Shown here piece by piece: positions 43,049 through 54,460 of a stretch of 64,000 nt of DNA (positions are counted from its first letter, which is position 1; each line of letters begins with the position of its first letter). The notes below the pieces were generated by a model. The model had not been told where the DNA came from. It saw only the letters and a program-made list of their open reading frames with translations, and did no database searches. Position numbers and translations under genes: made by a program. The stretch comes from Anaerolineae bacterium (GTDB taxonomy: Bacteria > Chloroflexota > Anaerolineae > S140-20). The DNA is taken from contig JALUTT010000077.1 in the NCBI GenBank assembly GCA_027021705.1, positions 62,586-126,585 on the forward strand, read 5' to 3'.

Positions 43049-43744
43049 ATGAAACTCACCATCCTGATCTGTGTCTACAACGAACGCAAGACCATCCTCA
43101 CCGTCCTGGACCAAGTCCGCGCCGTGGACCTGGGAGAGGGCTGGGAGAAGGAGATCCTGGTCGTGGACAACTTCTCCACCGACGGGACCCGAGAACTGCT
43201 CCGGTCCGTGGAAGGGCCGGAGGTGCGGGTGATCTACCACCCCCGCAACCTGGGCAAGGGGGCCTCCGTTCGCACCGGCATCGCCCACGCCACCGGCGAC
43301 TACCTGGTCATCCAGGACGCCGACCTGGAGTACGACCCGGCGGATTTGCCGCTGCTGCTGGAGAAGATCAACCCCACCCACACCGTGGCCGTCTTCGGAT
43401 CGCGCCGTCTGGGCGGGCGGGCCATCTACCGCTACGCCAAGAACTACTGGGGCGTCGTCTTCCTGACGGCGCTGACCAACTGGCTTTTCGGGGGCCGGCT
43501 GACCGACGTGGCGGTGGGGACCAAGATGGTGCGGCTGGACGTGCTGCGTTCGTTGAACCTGCGCGGCTCCGGCTTCGACCTGGACTTTGAACTGCCCTGC
43601 AAGCTGCTCAAGGCCGGCCACGACATCGTCGAAGTGCCCATCTCCTACAAGCCCCGGACGGTCGAGGAGGGGAAGAAGATCCGGGCCTTCCGCGACGGCC
43701 TGCGAGCCCTTTGGGTCATCCTCCGCGAGCGCCTGATCGGGTAG
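43049..43744 (+). CDS. Glycosyltransferase family 2 (DPM synthase-like)
   Basis: MKLTILICVYNE, VDNFSTDGT, NLGKGA, IQDADLEYDP; the real start is ATG 43049 inside the 42440 ORF. Confidence 0.9.
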   Translation: MKLTILICVYNERKTILTVLDQVRAVDLGEGWEKEILVVDNFSTDGTRELLRSVEGPEVRVIYHPRNLGKGASVRTGIAHATGDYLVIQDADLEYDPADLPLLLEKINPTHTVAVFGSRRLGGRAIYRYAKNYWGVVFLTALTNWLFGGRLTDVAVGTKMVRLDVLRSLNLRGSGFDLDFELPCKLLKAGHDIVEVPISYKPRTVEEGKKIRAFRDGLRALWVILRERLIG

Positions 43745-43752
43745 ATTGCATA

Positions 43753-44289
43753 ATGGATTCCGAGGAACGAAAGCCGTTTCCCAACCGGTGGCAGAGCCGG
43801 ATAGGTGAATATTTCGCCTCCTGGGCAGACCAGGTGGTCCTGGTCTACCTCTTCGGCTCCTGGGCAACAGGGCGAGTCTGGGCTCAGAGCGACTTGGACC
43901 TGGGCGTGCTCTTTGATAGGGCATTGCCCCGCCGGGAGCGATGGGAACTGACCCTCCGTTTCGAGGTTGACTTGGTCGGCTTGCTGAAAGACAAAGGAGA
44001 GATAGATGTGCGGGAACTGAATACCGCGCCGCTCGCCTTCCGTTACCAGGTGATCCGTCATCAACAATGCCTGTATGCCCGCAGTGAAGCCGAGCGAGTT
44101 GCCTTTGAAGCCTACGTGATCAGCGACTACTGCGATTTTAAGCCGGTTCGAGACCGTTACTACCGCTATATGGCCGAGCGACTCCGGCAGGGGGATGTAA
44201 ACTATGCGCTTGCCTCTGGACAACGTCTGGTCGCTCCTCGACCTGCTACGTCAGCAGCGAGACCTTCTTCTGGAGTTACGAGAGATTGA
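43753..44289 (+). CDS. Minimal nucleotidyltransferase antitoxin (MntA-like)
   Basis: YLFGSWATG...SDLDLGV (GSX10DXD), IDV..LN.AP. Confidence 0.85.
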   Translation: MDSEERKPFPNRWQSRIGEYFASWADQVVLVYLFGSWATGRVWAQSDLDLGVLFDRALPRRERWELTLRFEVDLVGLLKDKGEIDVRELNTAPLAFRYQVIRHQQCLYARSEAERVAFEAYVISDYCDFKPVRDRYYRYMAERLRQGDVNYALASGQRLVAPRPATSAARPSSGVTRD

Positions 44290-44650
44290 CTATGCTGACT
44301 TCCTTCAGAATCTCGAACGGCAGTACGCCGTCAAACACGCCCTTCTGCTGGCGATTCAGATCACGCTGGACATCTGCGCCCATCTGATCGCTATTGCCGG
44401 TAGAGGTGTTCCTGATGAATATCGGCAATTGCCTTTGGCCCTGGCCAAGATGGGGGTGATTTCTGACTCTCTTGCTGAGCGGTTAGCCCTGGCAGCAGGG
44501 TTCCGCAATCGCTTGGTGCATGCCTACCGAGACGTAGCTCTGGAGATGGTGTACGAATTTCTATTTGAGGACCTCGGCGACTTCGACGAGTTCCTGCAAG
44601 ACGTCTCGAAGTTCCTGGAACGGATGTCCCGGAACCAGGAGGAGGGATGA
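44204..44650 (+). CDS. HEPN (DUF86/HepT-like) toxin
   Basis: GFRNRLVHAY (RX4H followed by Tyr); directly after the MNT gene. Confidence 0.85.
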   Translation: MRLPLDNVWSLLDLLRQQRDLLLELREIDYADFLQNLERQYAVKHALLLAIQITLDICAHLIAIAGRGVPDEYRQLPLALAKMGVISDSLAERLALAAGFRNRLVHAYRDVALEMVYEFLFEDLGDFDEFLQDVSKFLERMSRNQEEG

Positions 44651-47657: not shown

Positions 47658-50600
47658 ATGGCCCTGCTTGGAGAGTTTCTGATCAACCTGGCCGCCGGCC
47701 TGGCCTACGACCTGCTCAAGGCCGGCGCGGCGCGGCTGAAGGCGCAGGCCCTGGGCGAGCCGGCCCAACGCGCCCTGCGGGGGTGCTACGAAACCGCCTT
47801 CCGGGCGATGCTGGAAGAGGTGGCCACCGGCCTGACGCCTGATGACCGGCGCCGCCTGGAGGACATCCTGCGCCGGTTCGTGGCCCGGCCGGAAGTTGCC
47901 GAAGGGCTGCTGGCCCTGGCCCTGACCGGCGCGCCGCTGCCGGACCTGCCCGCCCTGGAGCGGGCTTTCGCCCGCCAGTTCGACTGGGCCGGCCTGGAGG
48001 TCGGGCCGGGGGCCCGGTTCGACCGGGCCATGCGTGCCCTCCACCGGGGCCTGACCACGGCGCTGCTGGAGGAGGCCGGCCGGCCCGACAGCCCCCTCTT
48101 CAACCGGGTCAACCTGGGGCGGCTGCTGGCCCTTCAGGCGCTGCTCCAGGACCCGGGGCGCGCCCTGGCCGGGGTCAACCGGCGGCTGGCGCGCCTGGAG
48201 GCCCGGGGCGGGCAGACGGTCTACAACATCGTCATCGCCCGGGCCACCGGCGTGGCCATCGGTGACGGGGCGACCGTGCAGGGCTCATTGCCCCCCGATG
48301 TGCAAGACGTGCTGGACGCGATGCTGGCCCTGCTGCGCGAACTACGCTCGGAAGCCGGCGGGCGGAGCATCGCCATCGGCGGCGGGGTCAGCGGCAGCAT
48401 CCTCATCACCGGCGACAACAACATCGTCCAGGGCATCACCCACCTGCCCACCGACTACGGCACGCGCATCCGCAACTTCATCGTCGAGTACACCGGCACG
48501 CCCGAAGAGCCCGTTCCCTTCGGCGGGCGGGAGGCGGCGCTGGCGGAGTTGGACCGTTGGCTGGCCGACGCGGACGCCCCCCCTTACCTGCTCCTGGCCG
48601 CCCCGGCCGGTCGGGGCAAATCGGCCCTGCTGGTGCGCTGGCTGGAGCGGGTGCGCGAGCGCGACCCTGACCTGCCGCCGGTCTTCGTGCCCGTCAGCCT
48701 GCGCTTCAACACCGCCTCCCAGGCCGTCTTCTTCGCCGCCCTGGCCGCCCGCCTGGCCCACCTCTACGGCGAGAAGGTTCCCGCCGACCTGAGCCACGCC
48801 CCCGATTTCTGGCGGGGGATGGTGAGCAGTTTCCTGGGCCAGCCCCCACCCCAGGGCCGCCTGTTGGTGGTCCTGGACGGGCTGGACGAGGCCACCGACT
48901 GGGAGGCGGGGCCGGACCTCTTCCCTTTCCAGCCGCCGCCGGGGGTGCGCGTGGTGGTCTCGGCCCGCTACCTGGCCGACGAGGAAGGGCCGAGCGGTTG
49001 GCTGCGCCGCCTGGGGTGGGACCGCCCCGGCCTGGCCCGCCCCCTCGACCTGGACCCCCTCACCCGCGAGGGCGTGGCCGACGTGCTGGAGCGGATGGGC
49101 TTTCCCCTGGCCGAGTTGGGCCGCCGGGTGGACATCGTGGCCGAGCTGCACCGGTTGAGCGAGGGCGATCCCCTGCTGGTGCGCCTGTACGTGGGCGACC
49201 TGTGGCAGCGGGGGGAGGCGGCCACCCGCCTGCAGCCGGAGGACCTGCGAGGCCTGAAGCCCGGCCTGAAAGGGTATTTTGACGACTGGCTGAAGTATCA
49301 GCGTAAGCAGTGGGGAGAGAGGGCACCGCTCAAGGAGCAGGCCGTGCGGGAGGTGCTCAACCTGCTGGCGGCCGCCCTGGCCCCCCTGATGCAGGACGAC
49401 CTCCTCCGCCTGAGCCCGGACCTGGACACTTGGATGCTGGAGGAGGCCCTGCGCCCCCTGGCCCGGCTGGTCATCGGCGACGGCCGCGAGCAGGGCTATG
49501 CCTTCGGCCACCCCCGCCTGGGCCGGTACTTTTGGGAGAAACTGGGCCGACAGGAACGGCGGGCCCTGGAGGAGCGCTTCCTGACCTGGGGGTGGGAGAC
49601 CTTGGAAGCGCTCAAGCGGCGGGAGATGGCGCCGGCGGACGCGCCGGCCTACCTGGTGCGTGCCCTGGGGGGGCACCTGGTGCGGGCGAAGGCGGGGCCG
49701 GAGGAATGGTTACGGCTGGTAGATGGGGCTTGGGCGGCGGCGGGGGAGGCCCTGGAAGGGGCCTACGGCCTCTTCCTCCAGGACGTGCACCGCGCTTGGC
49801 AGGCCTGCGCTGTCGCCGACGGCGAGCGGGCGGAGCGGGGAGAGAGGGCCCCCTACCTGGGCGGGGAGGTGCGCTGCGCCCTGGTGGAGGCCAGCCTGCA
49901 CGCCCTGGCCGGGAACTTGCCGCCGGAACTGGTGGAGGCAGCGGTGGCGAAGGGGGTATGGACACCCCGCCAGGCCCTGGCCCACGTGCGCCAGATGCCC
50001 GATCCCCGGCAACAGGCCCGTGCCCTCGCCGTCCTGGTCCCCCACCTGCCGGCCCCGCTGCGAGAGCAAGCGCTGAGGGAGGCCCTGGCCGCCGCGCGGG
50101 AAATCAGGGATGCGGCACCACGGGCCGAGGCACTGAGGGAACTGGCTCCCCACCTGCCGGAGCCGCTGAGGGAGCAGGCGCTGAGGGAGGCCCTGGCCGC
50201 CGCGCGGGGAATCAGGGATGCGGCACCACGGGCCGAGGCACTGAGGGAGCTGGCTCCCCACCTGCTGGAGCCGCTGAGGGAGCAGGCGCTGAGGGAGGCC
50301 CTGGCCGCCGCGCGAGAGATTCGGTGGAGCGATGACCGGGCCGAGGCCCTCGCCGCCCTGGCTCCCCACCTGGCCGAGCTGGGGTATCTCCAGGAGGCCC
50401 TGGCCGCCGCGCGAGAGATTCGGTGGAGCGATGACCGGGCCGAGGCCCTCGCCGCCCTGGCCCCCCGCCTGGCCGAGCTGGGGTATCCCCAGGAAGCCCT
50501 GGCCGCCGCGCGGGCGATTGGGCACGAGCGATCCCGGGTCGAGGCCCTCGCCGCCCTGGCCCCCCACCTGCCGGCCCCGCTGGGGGAGCAAGCACTGAGG

Positions 50601-53045
50601 GAGGCCCTGGCCGCCGCGCGGGAGATTCGGTGGAGCGATGACCGGGCCAGGGCACTGAGGAAACTGGCCCCCCACCTGCCGGAGCCGCTGCGGGAGCAGG
50701 CGCTGAGGGAGGCCCTGGCCGCCGCGCGGGAGATTGAGTGGGAGTGGAGCCGGGCCAGGGCCCTCGCCGCCCTGGCCCCCCACCTACCGGCTCCGCTGCT
50801 GGAGGAGGCCCTGACCGCCGCGCGGGAGATTGGGGATGCCGATGACCGGGCCAGGGCCCTCGCCGCCCTGGCCCTCCGCCTGGCCGAGCTGGGGTATCCC
50901 CAGGAGGCCCTGGCCGCCGCGCGGGAGATTGAGCAGGGGTGGATACGGGCCGAGGCCCTCGCCGCCCTGGCCCCCCGCCTGGCCGAGCTGGGGTATCACC
51001 AGGAAGCCCTGGCCGCCGCGCGGGAGGTTGAGGAGGGATGGAAACGGGCCCGTGCCCTCGCCGCCCTGGCCCCCCACCTACCGGCTCCGCTGCTGGAGGA
51101 GGCCCTGGCCGCCGCGCGAGAGATTCGGTGGAGCGATGACCGGTCCGAGGCCCTCGCCGCCCTGGCTCCCCACCTGCCGGAGCCGCTGGGGGAGCAGGCG
51201 CTGAGGGAGGCCCTGGCCGCCGCGCGGGCGATTGGGCACGAGCGATCCCGGGCCGAGGCCCTCGCCGCCCTGGCCCCTCACCTGCCGGCTCCGCTGGGGG
51301 AGCAGGCGCTGAGGGAGGCCCTGACCGCCGCGCGGGAGTTGCCGGAGTGGGAATCTCTCGGGATCCTCGAGACCATGCGCCCACGGGCCGAGGCCCTCGC
51401 CGCCCTGGCCCCCCGCCTGGCCGAGCTGGGGTATCCCCAGGAGGCCCTGGCCGCCGCGCGGGCGATTGGGCACGAGCGATCCCGGGCCGAGGCCCTCGCC
51501 GCCCTGGCCCCCCGCCTGGCCGAGCTGGGGTATCCCCAGGAGGCCCTGGCCGCCGCGCGGGCGATTGAGAGGGAGTGGAGCCGAGCCGAGGCCCTCGCCG
51601 CCCTGGCCCCCCACCTACCGGCTCCGCTGCTGGAGGAGGCCCTGACCGCCGCGCGGGAGATTGGGGATGCCGATGACCGGGCCAGGGCCCTCGCCGCCCT
51701 GGCCCTCCGCCTGGCCGAGCTGGGGTATCCCCAGGAGGCCCTGGCCGCCGCGCGGGAGATTGAGCAGGGGTGGATACGGGCCGAGGCCCTCGCCGCCCTG
51801 GCCCCCCGCCTGGCCGAGCTGGGGTATCACCAGGAAGCCCTGGCCGCCGCGCGGGAGGTTGAGGAGGGATGGAAACGGGCCCGTGCCCTCGCCGCCCTGG
51901 CCCCCCACCTACCGGCTCCGCTGCTGGAGGAGGCCCTGGCCGCCGCGCGAGAGATTCGGTGGAGCGATGACCGGTCCGAGGCCCTCGCCGCCCTGGCTCC
52001 CCACCTGCCGGAGCCGCTGGGGGAGCAGGCGCTGAGGGAGGCCCTGGCCGCCGCGCGGGAAATCAGGAATGCGGCACCACGGGCTGGGGCACTGAGGGAA
52101 CTGGCTCCCCACCTGCCGGAGCCGCTGGGGGAGCAGGCGCTGAGGGAGGCCCTGGCCGCCGCGCGGGAGATTGAGAAGGGATGGGGACGGGCCAAAGTCC
52201 TCGCCGCCCTGGCTCCCCACCTGCCGGAGCCGCTGCGAGAGCAGGCGCTGAGGGAGGCCCTGGCCGCCGCGCGGGAGATTGGGGATGCCTATAGCCAGGC
52301 CGAGGCCCTCGCCGCCCTGGCCCCCCGCCTGCCGAAACCGCTGCGAGAACAAGCGCTGAGGGAGGCCCTGGCCGCCGCGCGGGAGATTGAGAAGGGATGG
52401 GGACGGGCCAAAGTCCTCGCCGCCCTGGCTCCCCACCTGCCGGAGCCGCTGCTGGAGGAGGCCCTGGCCGCCGCGCGGGAAATCAGGGGTGCGGCACCAC
52501 GGGCTGAGGCACTGAGAGAGCTAGCTCCCCACCTGCCGGCCCCGCTGGGGGAGCAGGCGCTGAGGGAGGCCCTGACCGCCGCGCGGGCGATTGGGGATGC
52601 CGATGACCGGGCCAAAGCCCTTGCCGCCCTGGCTCCCCACCTGCCGGTTCCGCTGCTGGAGGAGGCCCTGGCCGCCGCGCGGGAAATCAAGGATGCGGCA
52701 CTACGGGCCAAGACACTGAGGGAGTGGGCCTCCCACCTGCCGGAGCCGCTGGGGGAGCAGGTGCTGAGGGAGGCCCTGACCGCCGCGCGGGAGATAGGGG
52801 ATGCCGATGACCGGGCCAAAGCCCTCGCCGCCCTGGCCCCCCGCCTGGCCGCCTGGGCGGAGGAGGACCGGGCCACCGTCCACGCCCTCTGGCGGGAAAC
52901 GCTCCCCTCCCTGGCCCGCCGCACCCGCCGCCACCTCCTGGCCGACCTCCGCGCCCTGGAGCCCCTCATCGCCGCCCTAGGCGGCACCGAGGCCGTTGCC
53001 GAGACCTCCCGCGCCATCCGCGATGTGGGTCGGTGGTGGCCGTAG
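47658..53045 (+). CDS. NLR-like STAND NTPase (NACHT/AAA_16-like) with 27 C-terminal helical repeats
   Basis: FGGRE, Walker A APAGRGKS, Walker B LLVVLDGLDE, GDPL, then 32-36 aa repeats EALAAAREI-x5-RAEALAALAPHL...; single intact 1795-aa ORF. Confidence 0.88.
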   Translation: MALLGEFLINLAAGLAYDLLKAGAARLKAQALGEPAQRALRGCYETAFRAMLEEVATGLTPDDRRRLEDILRRFVARPEVAEGLLALALTGAPLPDLPALERAFARQFDWAGLEVGPGARFDRAMRALHRGLTTALLEEAGRPDSPLFNRVNLGRLLALQALLQDPGRALAGVNRRLARLEARGGQTVYNIVIARATGVAIGDGATVQGSLPPDVQDVLDAMLALLRELRSEAGGRSIAIGGGVSGSILITGDNNIVQGITHLPTDYGTRIRNFIVEYTGTPEEPVPFGGREAALAELDRWLADADAPPYLLLAAPAGRGKSALLVRWLERVRERDPDLPPVFVPVSLRFNTASQAVFFAALAARLAHLYGEKVPADLSHAPDFWRGMVSSFLGQPPPQGRLLVVLDGLDEATDWEAGPDLFPFQPPPGVRVVVSARYLADEEGPSGWLRRLGWDRPGLARPLDLDPLTREGVADVLERMGFPLAELGRRVDIVAELHRLSEGDPLLVRLYVGDLWQRGEAATRLQPEDLRGLKPGLKGYFDDWLKYQRKQWGERAPLKEQAVREVLNLLAAALAPLMQDDLLRLSPDLDTWMLEEALRPLARLVIGDGREQGYAFGHPRLGRYFWEKLGRQERRALEERFLTWGWETLEALKRREMAPADAPAYLVRALGGHLVRAKAGPEEWLRLVDGAWAAAGEALEGAYGLFLQDVHRAWQACAVADGERAERGERAPYLGGEVRCALVEASLHALAGNLPPELVEAAVAKGVWTPRQALAHVRQMPDPRQQARALAVLVPHLPAPLREQALREALAAAREIRDAAPRAEALRELAPHLPEPLREQALREALAAARGIRDAAPRAEALRELAPHLLEPLREQALREALAAAREIRWSDDRAEALAALAPHLAELGYLQEALAAAREIRWSDDRAEALAALAPRLAELGYPQEALAAARAIGHERSRVEALAALAPHLPAPLGEQALREALAAAREIRWSDDRARALRKLAPHLPEPLREQALREALAAAREIEWEWSRARALAALAPHLPAPLLEEALTAAREIGDADDRARALAALALRLAELGYPQEALAAAREIEQGWIRAEALAALAPRLAELGYHQEALAAAREVEEGWKRARALAALAPHLPAPLLEEALAAAREIRWSDDRSEALAALAPHLPEPLGEQALREALAAARAIGHERSRAEALAALAPHLPAPLGEQALREALTAARELPEWESLGILETMRPRAEALAALAPRLAELGYPQEALAAARAIGHERSRAEALAALAPRLAELGYPQEALAAARAIEREWSRAEALAALAPHLPAPLLEEALTAAREIGDADDRARALAALALRLAELGYPQEALAAAREIEQGWIRAEALAALAPRLAELGYHQEALAAAREVEEGWKRARALAALAPHLPAPLLEEALAAAREIRWSDDRSEALAALAPHLPEPLGEQALREALAAAREIRNAAPRAGALRELAPHLPEPLGEQALREALAAAREIEKGWGRAKVLAALAPHLPEPLREQALREALAAAREIGDAYSQAEALAALAPRLPKPLREQALREALAAAREIEKGWGRAKVLAALAPHLPEPLLEEALAAAREIRGAAPRAEALRELAPHLPAPLGEQALREALTAARAIGDADDRAKALAALAPHLPVPLLEEALAAAREIKDAALRAKTLREWASHLPEPLGEQVLREALTAAREIGDADDRAKALAALAPRLAAWAEEDRATVHALWRETLPSLARRTRRHLLADLRALEPLIAALGGTEAVAETSRAIRDVGRWWP

Positions 53046-53046
53046 G

Positions 53047-53680
53047 GCCGTCCACGAATGGGGCCACGAATGCCCGAATAGGTTCCCACCGCCATTCGTG
53101 TATTCGTGAACAATTCGTGGACGGCCGCCCGCCATTCGTGCATTCGTGAAAAATTCGTGGACGGCCGGCCCACGCCGTCCACGAATGGGGCCACGAATGC
53201 ACGAATAGGCCCCGCCGCCATTCGTGCATTCGTGAGAAATTCGTGGACGGCCGGCCCGTGCCATCCACGAACGGGGCCACGAATGCCCGAATAGACCCCG
53301 CCGCCATTCGTGTATTCGTGAACAATTCGTGGGCGGCCGGCCTGTGCCATCCACGAATGGGGCCACGAATGCCCGAATAGGTTCCCGCCGCCATTCGTGT
53401 ATTCGTGAGAGATTCGTGGCCGGCCGGCCCGCGCCATCCACGAACGGGGCCACGAATGCCCGAATAGACCCCGCCGCCATTCGTGCATTCGTGAGAGATT
53501 CGTGGACGGCCGGCCCGTGCCATCCACGAATGGGGGCGCGAATACCCGAATAGGTTCCCGCCGCCATTCGTGGATTCGTGGGAGATTCGTGGACGGCCGG
53601 CCCGCGCCATCCACGAATGGGGCCACGAATGCCCGAATAGGTTCCCGCCGCCATTCGTGCATTCGTGAGAAATTCGTGGA
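53047..53680. repeat. Tandem array of seven ~86-bp palindromic (CACGAAT x3 / ATTCGTG x3) units
   Basis: Unit starts at 53047, 53174, 53260, 53346, 53433, 53519, 53606; an extra half-unit lies at about 53128-53166. Confidence 0.9.
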
Positions 53681-53865
53681 GCGTGACCAAAAGCTGTTGA
53701 ACCACTGAAGCGCTGAGAGAAATGAGCTCACTGAGGAGTTGCGCGCCTCCTCCCCGTCGTCAGGGCATGGCCTTGCCGACGACCTAGGCCGCCCTGCCCA
53801 AGGCTCAGTGTCTTCACCTCCCTCAGTGCGTCAGTGATTCTGAGGGCCTGGTTGGCGGACGGACA

Positions 53866-54460
53866 AGCTGTCAACGGATTGGGAACGGATTGAACGGATT
53901 TGGAACGGATGGGGTGGTGCTCCCAAGAGGGCTTGTCCAGACCTTCGCACCGCTTCGTGCTCTTTGAGCTCTTGGTGTCCTTCGTGTCTCCCACCGTGGC
54001 CGGAGCGGACGAGCTGTCAACGGATTGGGAACGGATTGAACGGATTTGGAACGGATGGGGTGGTGCTCCCAAGAGGGCTTGTCCAGACCTTCGCACCGCT
54101 TCGTGCTCTTTGAGCTCTTGGTGCCCTTCGTGTCTCCCACCGTGGCCGGAGCGGACGAGCTGTCAACGGATTGGGAACGGATTGAACGGATGGGAGGCAT
54201 AGTCCTCAGTCCTCGGTCCACAGTCCGCTGCTAGGCTGCTAGGCCGCTAGGCCGCCAGTCGCTATGCCGCTATGCCGCCCTGGAACGGATAGCTGTCAAC
54301 GGATTGGGGAACGGATTGAACGGATGGGGGGCTCCCAAGAGGGCTTGTCCAGACCTTCGCACCGCTTCGTGCTCTTTGAGCTCTTGGTGCCCTTCGTGTC
54401 TCCCGCCGTGGCCGGAGCGGACGAGCTGTCAACGGATTGGGGAACGGATTGAACGGATGG
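53866..54460. repeat. Tandem ~146-bp units (AACGGATT-type + CTTCGTG-type subrepeats)
   Basis: agctgtcaacggatt starts at 53866, 54012, 54158 (partial), 54291 (133 bp) and 54424 (partial); bracketed by a 39-bp direct repeat at 53802-53840 and 54469-54507. Confidence 0.88.

Follow-up and report, generated by a model that had tools for sequence, protein, structure and literature searches.

The window, that is, the whole 64,000-nt stretch of Anaerolineae DNA analyzed here, encodes a large NLR-like STAND protein with two short candidate signaling motifs ahead of its NTPase. The gene and its features are arranged as follows.

47658..53045, + strand: the whole gene, encoding a 1795-aa NLR-like STAND protein in a single open frame, stop codon included.
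47658..48212, + strand: N-terminal helical domain (N-domain), residues 1–185, NNH2-like according to a below-cut-off Pfam NNH2 match and the bundle in an AF2 model.
48216..48284, + strand: motif 1, residues 187–209, a conserved half-motif of BASS3/RHIM-like type in the end part of the N-module, assigned by profile and homologues.
48294..48353, + strand: amphipathic helix, residues 213–232, the last element of the N-module, seen in the AF2 model and conserved in module-A homologues.
48357..48434, + strand: motif 2, residues 234–259, of BASS6 type and ancestrally at the very N-terminus of the NLR, assigned by similarity to BASS6 and by relatives.
48504..48971, + strand: NTPase core, residues 283–438, assigned by PADLOC/Pfam profiles and Walker motifs.
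50186..52851, + strand: about 25 Ala/Leu-rich helical repeats, the presumed sensor, found by Tandem Repeats Finder.

A preliminary description of this DNA had placed the two motifs between a helical N-terminal domain and the NTPase, separated by one short helix. Translation puts them exactly at residues 187–209 and 234–259, and the AF2 monomer model of residues 1–281 agrees with this arrangement. In the model a helical bundle spans residues 1–184 with pLDDT mostly >90, and the single helix 213–232 separates motif 1 from motif 2. Motif 1 is poorly determined and drawn as a helix (pLDDT 52–73); motif 2 is disordered and devoid of beta structure (pLDDT 41–49). An in-frame ATG at residue 222 (48321) would permit a possible short form starting just ahead of motif 2; no ribosome-binding site was seen at this ATG.

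Residues 283–438 match the PADLOC model STAND_TPR at E 6.2e-16, and the Pfam models NPHP3_N (20.6 bits, cut-off 24.8) and NACHT (13.2 bits, cut-off 26.7) score below their cut-offs on the protein. The module contains GRGKS at residues 318–322 and VVLDGLDE at 404–411, which from general knowledge of P-loop NTPases we take to be the Walker A and a Walker B-like motif, respectively. The repeat region has a 108-nt period in 24.8 copies and an internal duplication (50708–51007 versus 51539–51838, 98% identity). In a Pfam scan of the protein, the repeats matched no Pfam repeat family.

The N-domain has 170 relatives at E ≤ 0.001, and its first ~20 residues are the most conserved stretch of the family. 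Pfam NNH2 (PF22734) scores 19.4 bits on the window protein against a cut-off of 27, which is therefore not reached; the model matches 18 of 52 family members at E ≤ 0.01, with 31.5 bits at best, and gives 31.8 bits on a paralogue in the same genome (C117). We thus regard the N-domain as a divergent relative of NNH2 rather than a scored member. Elsewhere it is fused to TIR (5 of 35 proteins scanned) as well as to FHA, Clp_N, HEAT and BNR modules. In the window protein it occupies the position of an effector, and it is possibly a second effector, a membrane anchor or an adaptor. As a separate lead, G-x-x-Y-D in its N-terminus recalls, by published positions alone, the mutated Bab positions G11/Y14/D15 (Ibarlosa et al. 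2024, 10.1101/2024.11.07.622273).

Sequence comparison places motif 2 in BASS6, a published NLR-associated family of bacterial amyloid-signaling motifs. It shares 16 of 26 residues, counted on the printed strings, with C09_s051 of cluster C09 (supplement of PMC8086366), and the archive README gives this cluster as BASS6. The motif-2 profile hits the window ORF at E 1.6e-10 in the window-frame scan and at i-E 1.3e-8 in the genome scan, and the pattern recurs in 14 other proteins of the 161 compared. Proteins closely related in the NTPase module (P0015, P0085, P0088, the L032 NLR and C162) start with motif 2, and in the window protein it runs straight into the conserved start of that module with no flexible linker. 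The closest relative of this module, at 81% identity over 515 aa, is that of L032; it has the motif at its very beginning, and only 1 nt separates the L032 NLR from the preceding gene, which encodes a helical protein of 142 aa with a matching motif at its end. A related-contig search returned a single related locus. Furthermore, motif 2 is retained in a 95%-identical relative (P0016) and behind at least three different N-domains (P0014/P0084, P0036, P0046 and P0154).

Motif 1 resembles BASS3 over its first two thirds, and membership is only partial. The BASS3/RHIM-like signature has a K-Y-x-V ... G-V-Q-[IV]-G-D core, behind which comes a tail rich in N/Q with F as its last residue. Motif 1 is identical to each of two BASS3 members at 7 of 20 positions of the aligned strings and has the elements Y-N-[IV] and A-x-G-h-x-I-G-D in common with BASS3; it carries Ala in place of the central RHIM-like Gln and is devoid of the N/Q-rich tail. 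Substrings such as VAIGD were absent from the BASS sets compared, and Pfam RHIM gave no match to the window protein at E ≤ 1. The motif-1 profile reached E 9.4e-13 in one search and E 2.5e-14 on the window ORF in the window-frame scan. The pattern was found in 33 other proteins of the 161 compared, each time directly behind a homologous N-domain, and its conservation extends to relatives with ~40% overall identity. It is likewise found behind the N-domain in a protein that combines this domain with FHA and is no NLR, and motif 1 may thus serve the N-domain rather than signaling in trans.

Both motifs fit BASS in length and composition (~25 aa, enriched in G, N, Q, V and I). Beta propensity also belongs to the definition of the class; the AF2 monomer model draws motif 2 as disordered and motif 1 as a weak helix. 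According to Dyrka et al. (2020, 10.1101/2020.01.06.895854), a BASS motif lies at the N-terminus of an NLR and is matched by the C-terminus of an effector from an adjacent collinear gene, and such motifs form fibrils and prions. The window motifs are internal instead, starting at residues 187 and 234. Similarity to module-A homologues stops after helix 213–232, which places the fusion junction behind this helix. The gene is thus a chimera, in which an N-module (residues 1–232) was fused at the former start codon of a complete BASS6-NLR. By the same comparison, the motifs are not a designed pair; they belong to two different modules that were brought together by fusion. We also considered the two motifs as HET-s-like r1/r2 repeats and rejected this assignment, given their different origins and families. 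In the definition of the same source, the HET-s-type prion-forming domain has one motif present as two pseudo-repeats, which a flexible G/P-rich loop of 6–15 residues connects; between the window motifs lie 24 residues that include a predicted helix. The identity proposed in the preliminary description, RHIM-like or BASS, is accordingly retained for motif 2 and only in part for motif 1.

No partner gene adjoins the window gene, as had been stated earlier: among the window's 1,158 open frames of at least 25 aa, none except the ORF itself scored below E 0.1 with either motif profile. In the genome assembly (183 contigs, 94.9% complete), a search of 43,702 open frames found 14 with a BASS6-like motif at i-E <0.001. 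Among the sequences behind the profile used were the C120 protein of this same genome and a protein 95% identical to that of the window. The tail of the C120 protein (152 aa) is the best of the 11 in-genome motif instances compared with motif 2, with 15 of 27 residues identical and a BLOSUM score of 81 that none of 100,000 composition-preserving shuffles reached; BLASTP gave 60% over 25 aa. An AF2 model of this protein consists of a five-helix bundle with pLDDT >90 and a disordered tail. Its family counts 462 relatives. HetE-N (PF20701) is precomputed on all 120 of those listed, and a direct Pfam scan found it on one of four members tested, below the cut-off, the C120 protein being unmatched. 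Over 111 residues the C120 protein shares 42% identity with a small protein that bears a classical BASS3 tail and lies ~1.3 kb from an NLR-like protein starting with a BASS3-type motif. On these features, the C120 protein looks like a Bell/HetE-N-like executioner. A literature search on HetE-N found nothing relevant.

Sequence searches of the C120 protein and of residues 1–281 of the window protein against solved structures gave nothing meaningful. Foldseek and VIA-align searches with the AF2 models of the N-domain and the C120 protein found nothing at E ≤ 0.001; the best Z scores (5.9 and 5.8) belonged to unrelated helical bundles at noise level, and a Bell, HeLo or Bab-like structure was found for neither. 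ZAR1 and Rx-CC appeared among the fold-search rows at noise level, and we left the fold unassigned. We also rejected the N-domain as a relative of Bell/HetE-N, given an hhalign probability of 1%.

Further candidate partners for motif 2 are a small C181 protein with a composite tail and the C175 trypsin-like protease. The C181 small protein is followed by an NB-ARC protein starting with a motif-1-like sequence. For motif 1, a 197-aa adaptor-like protein (C40) shares 14 of 24 residues, with none of 20,000 composition-preserving shuffles reaching the score; an ESM Atlas look-up of this protein gave only low scores (0.78). All four candidates (C120, C181, C175 and C40) are unlinked to the window gene. 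Pairing with them is proposed from similarity, and its specificity among the 14 motif-bearing frames is uncertain. Both motifs exceed chance, as shown by their recurrence in 33 and 14 other proteins, by the profile hits and by the shuffles, which never attained the partner similarities. The preliminary description had named peptides that form no fibrils, together with a lack of matching motifs on effector-like proteins, as grounds for refutation; the genome search found such motifs on effector-like small proteins, and the refutation therefore does not apply. As far as sequence comparison goes, the core amyloid-signaling reading holds.

Matched gene pairs of small protein and NLR occur for both motif types in related genomes. 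For motif 1, the profile used on other genomes was built from six in-genome instances only and is hence narrow. In G263, a genome from the same phylum, an NLR that is a module-A homologue has a gene for a small protein of 170 aa ~880 nt upstream. The tail of this small protein matches motif 1 of the NLR at 15 of 24 positions, a score reached by none of 20,000 shuffles. For motif 2, the G002:C17 cluster encodes an NB-ARC-TPR protein with a small protein on either side. This NLR has an N-domain different from that of the window protein and an internal BASS6 motif, which both small proteins match. The G006:C21 cluster consists of a large protein followed by a small one. Within each of these two clusters the motif variants are pair-specific.

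The order of domain, BASS motif and NOD is found in four other proteins of the same genome (C73, C36, C178 and C117). The first domain of C73 is Trypsin_2, those of C36 and C178 are 28–32% identical to the Bell-like C120 protein, and C117 carries NNH2 itself. Three proteins form a series, with C175 combining protease and motif, C162 combining motif and NLR, and C73 combining protease, motif and NLR. C73 resembles both of the others, with 62% identity to C162 (1295 aa) and 34% identity to C175 (241 aa). This trio suggests that such proteins arise by fusion of two-gene systems.

These data enable us to propose, as the somewhat more probable reading, that the window protein is an NLR-like STAND sensor coupled through two short homotypic motifs to effectors encoded elsewhere. 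Ligand binding to the helical repeats would trigger NTP-dependent oligomerization. The oligomer would crowd the disordered motifs, which would fold cooperatively into a cross-beta nucleus, and this nucleus would template the matching tails of free partners. The putative partners would be the 152-aa C120 protein, the composite-tail C181 protein and the C175 protease for the BASS6 motif, and the 197-aa C40 protein for motif 1. Templating would switch on their membrane-targeting or proteolytic activity, leading to regulated cell death or abortive defense.

It is conceivable, though on balance doubtful, that the two motifs, BASS3-like and BASS6, make this one NLR a dual-channel amyloid hub, a hybrid of the two-gene and all-in-one designs. 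Such a hub could fire two classes of effector at once, i.e. a membrane-type small protein or trypsin-like protease via BASS6 and an adaptor via motif 1. The composite tails of Bell-like executioners (C181 here, G263 and G250 elsewhere) combine the same two motif types in opposite order, and the receptor could thus bind them bivalently. Together with the four other domain-BASS-NOD fusions and the ~14 motif genes, it would be part of a genome-wide network in which sensors are many, executioners few and partners unlinked; the fused proteins would be functional hybrids combining cis activation with trans amplification.

An ordinary homotypic adaptor, in which EAD10-like alpha+beta motifs engage in stoichiometric beta-augmentation within the oligomer and no self-propagating cross-beta structure forms, is a less probable but serious alternative to templating. 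EAD10 (PF19954) covers the same motif in a 1197-aa C181 protein (residues 1–54, E 2.6e-9) and in the C181 small protein (residues 132–162, E 4.2e-4). Kaur et al. (2020, PMC7159879) describe EADs as small non-enzymatic domains that are duplicated between a core component and its effectors. The genes concerned are often neighbors, more copies lie elsewhere in the genome, one protein can contain several, and homotypic action is inferred. The direct junction of the motif with a folded domain also fits such an adaptor. However, the EAD10-TPR-GreA/B-C-PIN architecture (PMC8195603) is the one given for Agp, whose N-terminal motif has been demonstrated to assemble into amyloid and to work through templating (Ibarlosa et al. 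2024); from these two texts we infer that the EAD10 element and the Agp amyloid motif are the same element. Moreover, the window protein has no EAD10 match at E ≤ 1, and motif 2 and the C120 tail are predicted to be disordered.

The second alternative, already raised in the preliminary description, is an all-in-one receptor. In this case the NNH2-like N-domain would be the executioner, and the motifs would act in cis or between protomers as a zipper or switch, free of any partner. The solitary position of the window gene, the four similar layouts in the genome with recognizable effectors in first place in three of them (C73, C36 and C178), the fusion history of the C175/C162/C73 trio and the well-conserved N-terminal ~20 residues of the N-domain family all speak for it. 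Signaling in trans, the other option of the preliminary description, is nevertheless better supported, because the G263 NLR with the same N-domain and motif 1 keeps a neighboring small protein with a matching motif; likewise, the internal BASS6 motif of the G002 NLR is flanked by two matching small proteins. Furthermore, the varied fusions of the N-domain fit adaptor or targeting roles as well as an effector role, and the N-domain shows no detectable relation to the Bell-like family. We consider this alternative improbable. That motif 2, and perhaps motif 1, is merely an inert linker left over since the fusion and kept by descent would suit a junction recent enough to be readable and the atypical motif position, yet it is highly improbable given that motif 2 persists in P0016 and behind at least three N-domains and motif 1 in 33 other proteins down to ~40% overall identity.

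Amyloid signaling from NLRs to executioners is established in fungi, in mammals and, recently, in bacteria, and is described as a two-gene, end-to-end system. If the motifs of the window protein are active, genome mining limited to protein termini and adjacent genes undercounts such systems, several effectors may be addressed by one receptor, and trans signaling is not necessarily ended by gene fusion. C175, C162 and C73 provide a concrete set for how two-gene systems become fused ones.

Among known systems, the Bell/NLR BASS pairs (Dyrka et al. 2020) share with our case a ~25-residue motif rich in G, V, I and N, its occurrence on NLR-like NTPases and at the C-terminus of small helical proteins, adjacent collinear matched pairs in close relatives (L032, with a 1-nt gap), and composite or repeated motifs on the effector side. 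The window protein differs in that its motifs lie internally, preceded by an N-domain of 185 residues, that one receptor unites two motif families, and that the partner candidates are scattered over other contigs, none being adjacent. The E. coli Bab/Agp pair (BASS11), which confers phage defense through amyloid templating (Ibarlosa et al. 2024), likewise combines a small helical Bell-related executioner bearing a C-terminal motif with a large sensor bearing a matching one, and two proteins of the window's genome have their BASS6-like motif covered by EAD10. By description rather than by sequence, Agp differs in being a TPR-GreA/B-C-PIN sensor devoid of a STAND NTPase and in having its gene adjacent to that of Bab. 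HET-S/NWD2 of Podospora anserina is similar in that two short beta-prone motifs come after a helical N-terminal domain, and in its design, in which an NLR nucleates the fold that activates a membrane-targeting protein. In HET-S a single motif is repeated, with a flexible loop linking the two copies, at the C-terminal end of the effector, whereas the two motifs of the window protein represent different families, have a helix between them and are located inside the receptor. Finally, all-in-one NLRs of fungi and bacteria also unite an N-terminal domain, a NOD and repeats in one polypeptide. The literature, in the parts available, presents the all-in-one and the amyloid two-gene layouts as alternatives, and the portions covered by our limited search do not describe a hybrid domain-BASS-NOD layout; the window protein and four others, by contrast, keep the signaling motif between the N-terminal domain and the NOD.

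A single open frame on the + strand, 47658–53045, encodes on translation of the window an NLR-like protein of 1795 residues. The two peptides quoted in the preliminary description correspond exactly to residues 187–209 and 234–259 of this protein, ahead of its NTPase region (NOD):

48216–48284, + strand: motif 1 (residues 187–209)
48357–48434, + strand: motif 2 (residues 234–259)
3′ of the motifs: P-loop NTPase (GRGKS at residues 318–322, VVLDGLDE at 404–411)

The NTPase region matches PADLOC STAND_TPR (E 6.2e-16), and Pfam NACHT and NPHP3_N only below their cut-offs. After it comes an array of about 25 helical repeats, rich in Ala and Leu and recurring every 108 nt. These contain a 98%-identical internal duplication (50708–51007 versus 51539–51838, 831 nt apart), consistent with recent shuffling of repeats in what is presumed to be the sensor. 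The AlphaFold2 model of residues 1–281, built on 52 aligned relatives (mean pLDDT 79.3), displays a confident helical bundle (residues 1–184) and a helix between the motifs (213–232); motif 1 is drawn as a helix at pLDDT 52–73, and motif 2 is disordered (pLDDT 41–49). Just 3′ of the gene lie two intergenic tandem arrays, at 53089–53680 (86/173-nt unit, 6.4 copies, 90% identity) and 53856–54191 (146-nt unit, 2.3 copies, 98%). Elsewhere in the window, at 43711–44650, two overlapping + strand frames of 192 and 148 aa resemble, from their translations, what we take to be a nucleotidyltransferase/HEPN (DUF86-type) toxin–antitoxin pair.

With residues 1–281 as the query, 13 of 8000 scored candidates passed a threshold of E ≤ 0.001, as did 170 proteins among 1.84 billion representatives. 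These relatives split into two groups. Module A (N-domain, motif 1 and the helix after it, spanning roughly residues 1–232) is common, at 40–60% identity, to proteins with differing downstream parts, namely other NACHT types, NB-ARC, nSTAND1, AAA-TPR, FHA, TIR, Clp_N, HEAT and BNR. Module B comprises motif 2, the NTPase and the repeats; its relatives either begin with the motif (P0015, P0085, P0088, P0152, P0155) or carry another N-domain ahead of it (P0014/P0084, P0036, P0046, P0154). Since the likeness to module-A relatives stops after the helix and that to module-B relatives starts at the position of the P0015 start codon, the gene appears to have arisen by joining an N-module to the front of an intact NLR that began with its motif. 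An in-frame ATG at residue 222 (48321–48323), 12 codons ahead of motif 2, could yield a motif-first short form, and has no obvious ribosome-binding site upstream. The N-domain itself scores 19.4 bits against Pfam NNH2 (cut-off 27), which 18 of 52 relatives match at E ≤ 0.01; NNH domains are named without function in the accessible part of a bacterial NACHT study (10.1101/2022.07.19.500537). Neither sequence nor fold search found a solved-structure relative of the N-domain.

The preliminary description had put both forward as candidate amyloid-signalling motifs, with the RHIM-like/BASS motifs of bacterial NLRs as the known background. Among the training sets of the ten BASS families, supplied as an archive with PMC8086366, cluster C09 is BASS6 according to the README. 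Motif 2 is identical to one C09 member at 16 of 26 positions, counted on the printed sequences; judged on sequence, it is of the BASS6 type, and the C09 members listed clearly show this very motif. BASS motifs are defined genomically, in the accessible text of 10.1101/2020.01.06.895854, by a pairing: a small Bell-type protein carries the motif at its C-terminus, and the adjacent collinear NLR carries a matching one at its N-terminus. Such a pairing is present at L032, the locus of the relative closest to module B (81% identity over 515 aa): there the NLR opens with the motif, and its gene starts 1 nt downstream of one for a 142-aa helical protein whose end bears the matching motif.

Motif 1 is similar to BASS3, a RHIM-like family (cluster C03 of the PMC8086366 archive), over the first two thirds of that motif. 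However, it has Ala at the BASS3 Gln position, lacks the N/Q-rich tail, and is only 7/20 identical to each of two BASS3 members; we therefore regard it as a second, related motif type that is BASS3-like, not BASS3. The pattern occurs in 33 other proteins (among 161), always straight after a homologous N-domain, and a profile built from six instances within the source genome finds matches in 11 of 301 genomes. In genome G263, a small helical protein of 170 aa has a composite tail, in which a BASS6-like motif runs straight into a motif-1-like one. Its gene lies about 880 nt upstream of a module-A homologue, across a repeat-filled spacer similar to the arrays 3′ of the window gene, and its motif-1-like element agrees with motif 1 of that homologous NLR at 15/24 positions (score reached by 0/20,000 shuffles). 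The same composite tail stands in G250 beside a protein with a BASS3-like motif, and on contig C181 of the source genome directly upstream of an NB-ARC protein starting with a motif-1-like sequence; one BASS6 training sequence likewise continues into the start of a motif-1-like motif (PMC8086366 archive). The C181 locus (L038) is an NLR island in which an EAD10-STAND protein of 1197 aa is also encoded, at a distance of about 5 kb. Classical BASS3-type tails were seen in two genomes of the same phylum: in G241 (L058), on a small protein encoded about 1.3 kb from one that is NLR-like and begins with a BASS3-type motif, and in G192 (L059), on a 204-aa protein, TIR-like by eye, whose gene lies just ahead of that for a larger protein with a comparable N-terminus. 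The G241 small protein is like a candidate partner from contig C120.

As the preliminary description had stated, no partner gene is adjacent: among the window's 1,158 frames of at least 25 aa, none other than the NLR frame itself matched the motifs below E 0.1. The suggested search of the source genome (5.19 Mb, 183 contigs) did return matching motifs. BASS6-like motifs (i-E below 0.001) occur in 14 of its 43,702 open frames, by a profile whose input sequences included the C120 protein of this genome and one nearly identical to the window protein. In the predicted structure of the C120 protein (152 aa), which has a hydrophobic N-terminal helix, five helices score pLDDT above 90; its tail is disordered and closes with a BASS6 motif. 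This tail is the best motif-2 match among 11 in-genome instances (15/27 identical, BLOSUM score 81, reached by 0/100,000 shuffles). Metabolic and stress genes surround it. Its family counts 462 relatives at E ≤ 0.01; all 120 matches listed carry the precomputed label HetE-N (PF20701), an uncharacterised effector domain in the accessible part of Kaur et al. 2021 (PMC8195603), which our own Pfam scan matched weakly in just one of four members tested. The C120 protein found matches in 20 of 301 genomes of the phylum, including two more matched clusters with pair-specific motif variants: G002:C17 (small protein, NB-ARC-TPR protein with N-domain and internal motif, second small protein) and G006:C21 (large protein, then small one). 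The best motif-1 match is a 197-aa protein (14/24 identical; score reached by 0/20,000 shuffles):

L029:6404–6994, + strand: C40 motif-1 protein, ending in a conserved helical module

It has 35 relatives sharing the helical module and looks like an adaptor, because in other proteins that module is joined to a caspase, TIR-like, SIR2-like or STAND domain. Two frames of contig C85 (about 61.4–63.2 kb) likewise carry it; a frame that by eye reads as RAMP-like (type III CRISPR-like) lies a few kb away. Further candidate partners are the C181 composite-tail protein and a Trypsin_2 protease on contig C175 whose C-terminus bears a BASS6 motif.

The order domain, BASS6-like motif, NOD recurs in four other proteins of the source genome. 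The N-domain is NNH2 in C117 (31.8 bits, above cut-off), 28–32% identical to the C120 protein in C36 and C178, and Trypsin_2 in C73. The last is 62% identical over 1295 aa to the motif-first NLR of C162 and 34% over 241 aa to the free protease:

L034:2287–3102, − strand: C175 free trypsin-like protease with BASS6 tail
L002:498–4205, − strand: C162 BASS6-first NLR
L035:1022–6688, − strand: C73 protease–NLR fusion

The three genes give a direct picture of a putative two-gene system beside its fused form. Reviews and a preprint, in their accessible parts, present all-in-one and amyloid two-gene designs as alternatives; a limited literature search found no description of the hybrid layout.

The analysis shows that the motifs resemble known families, that relatives have matched pairs, that the source genome encodes matching motifs, that the gene is modular in origin and that the tails are predicted to be disordered. 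By analogy with published systems, ligand-driven oligomerisation would crowd the motifs, which would take up a cross-beta fold, template the partner tails and so activate the partners. The main rival holds that the motifs are adaptor elements in the sense of Kaur et al. (accessible part of PMC7159879), not amyloid; indeed, Pfam EAD10 covers the same motif in two proteins of the source genome. However, the EAD10-TPR-GreA/B-C-PIN architecture of Kaur et al. 2021 is the one reported for Agp, the large sensor of the E. coli antiphage pair Bab/Agp; the motif of Agp was shown to be amyloid (10.1101/2024.11.07.622273). Given this match, the EAD and BASS nomenclatures probably describe one element, an equation drawn from parts of two texts. 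An all-in-one receptor acting only in cis is possible but made less likely by G263 and G002, where NLRs with an N-domain have partners next to them. The observation was confirmed, and the preliminary interpretation, an all-in-one fusion or a hub signalling in trans, was largely right; we class the feature as a genuine variation on a signalling design already known rather than as a system of a new kind.
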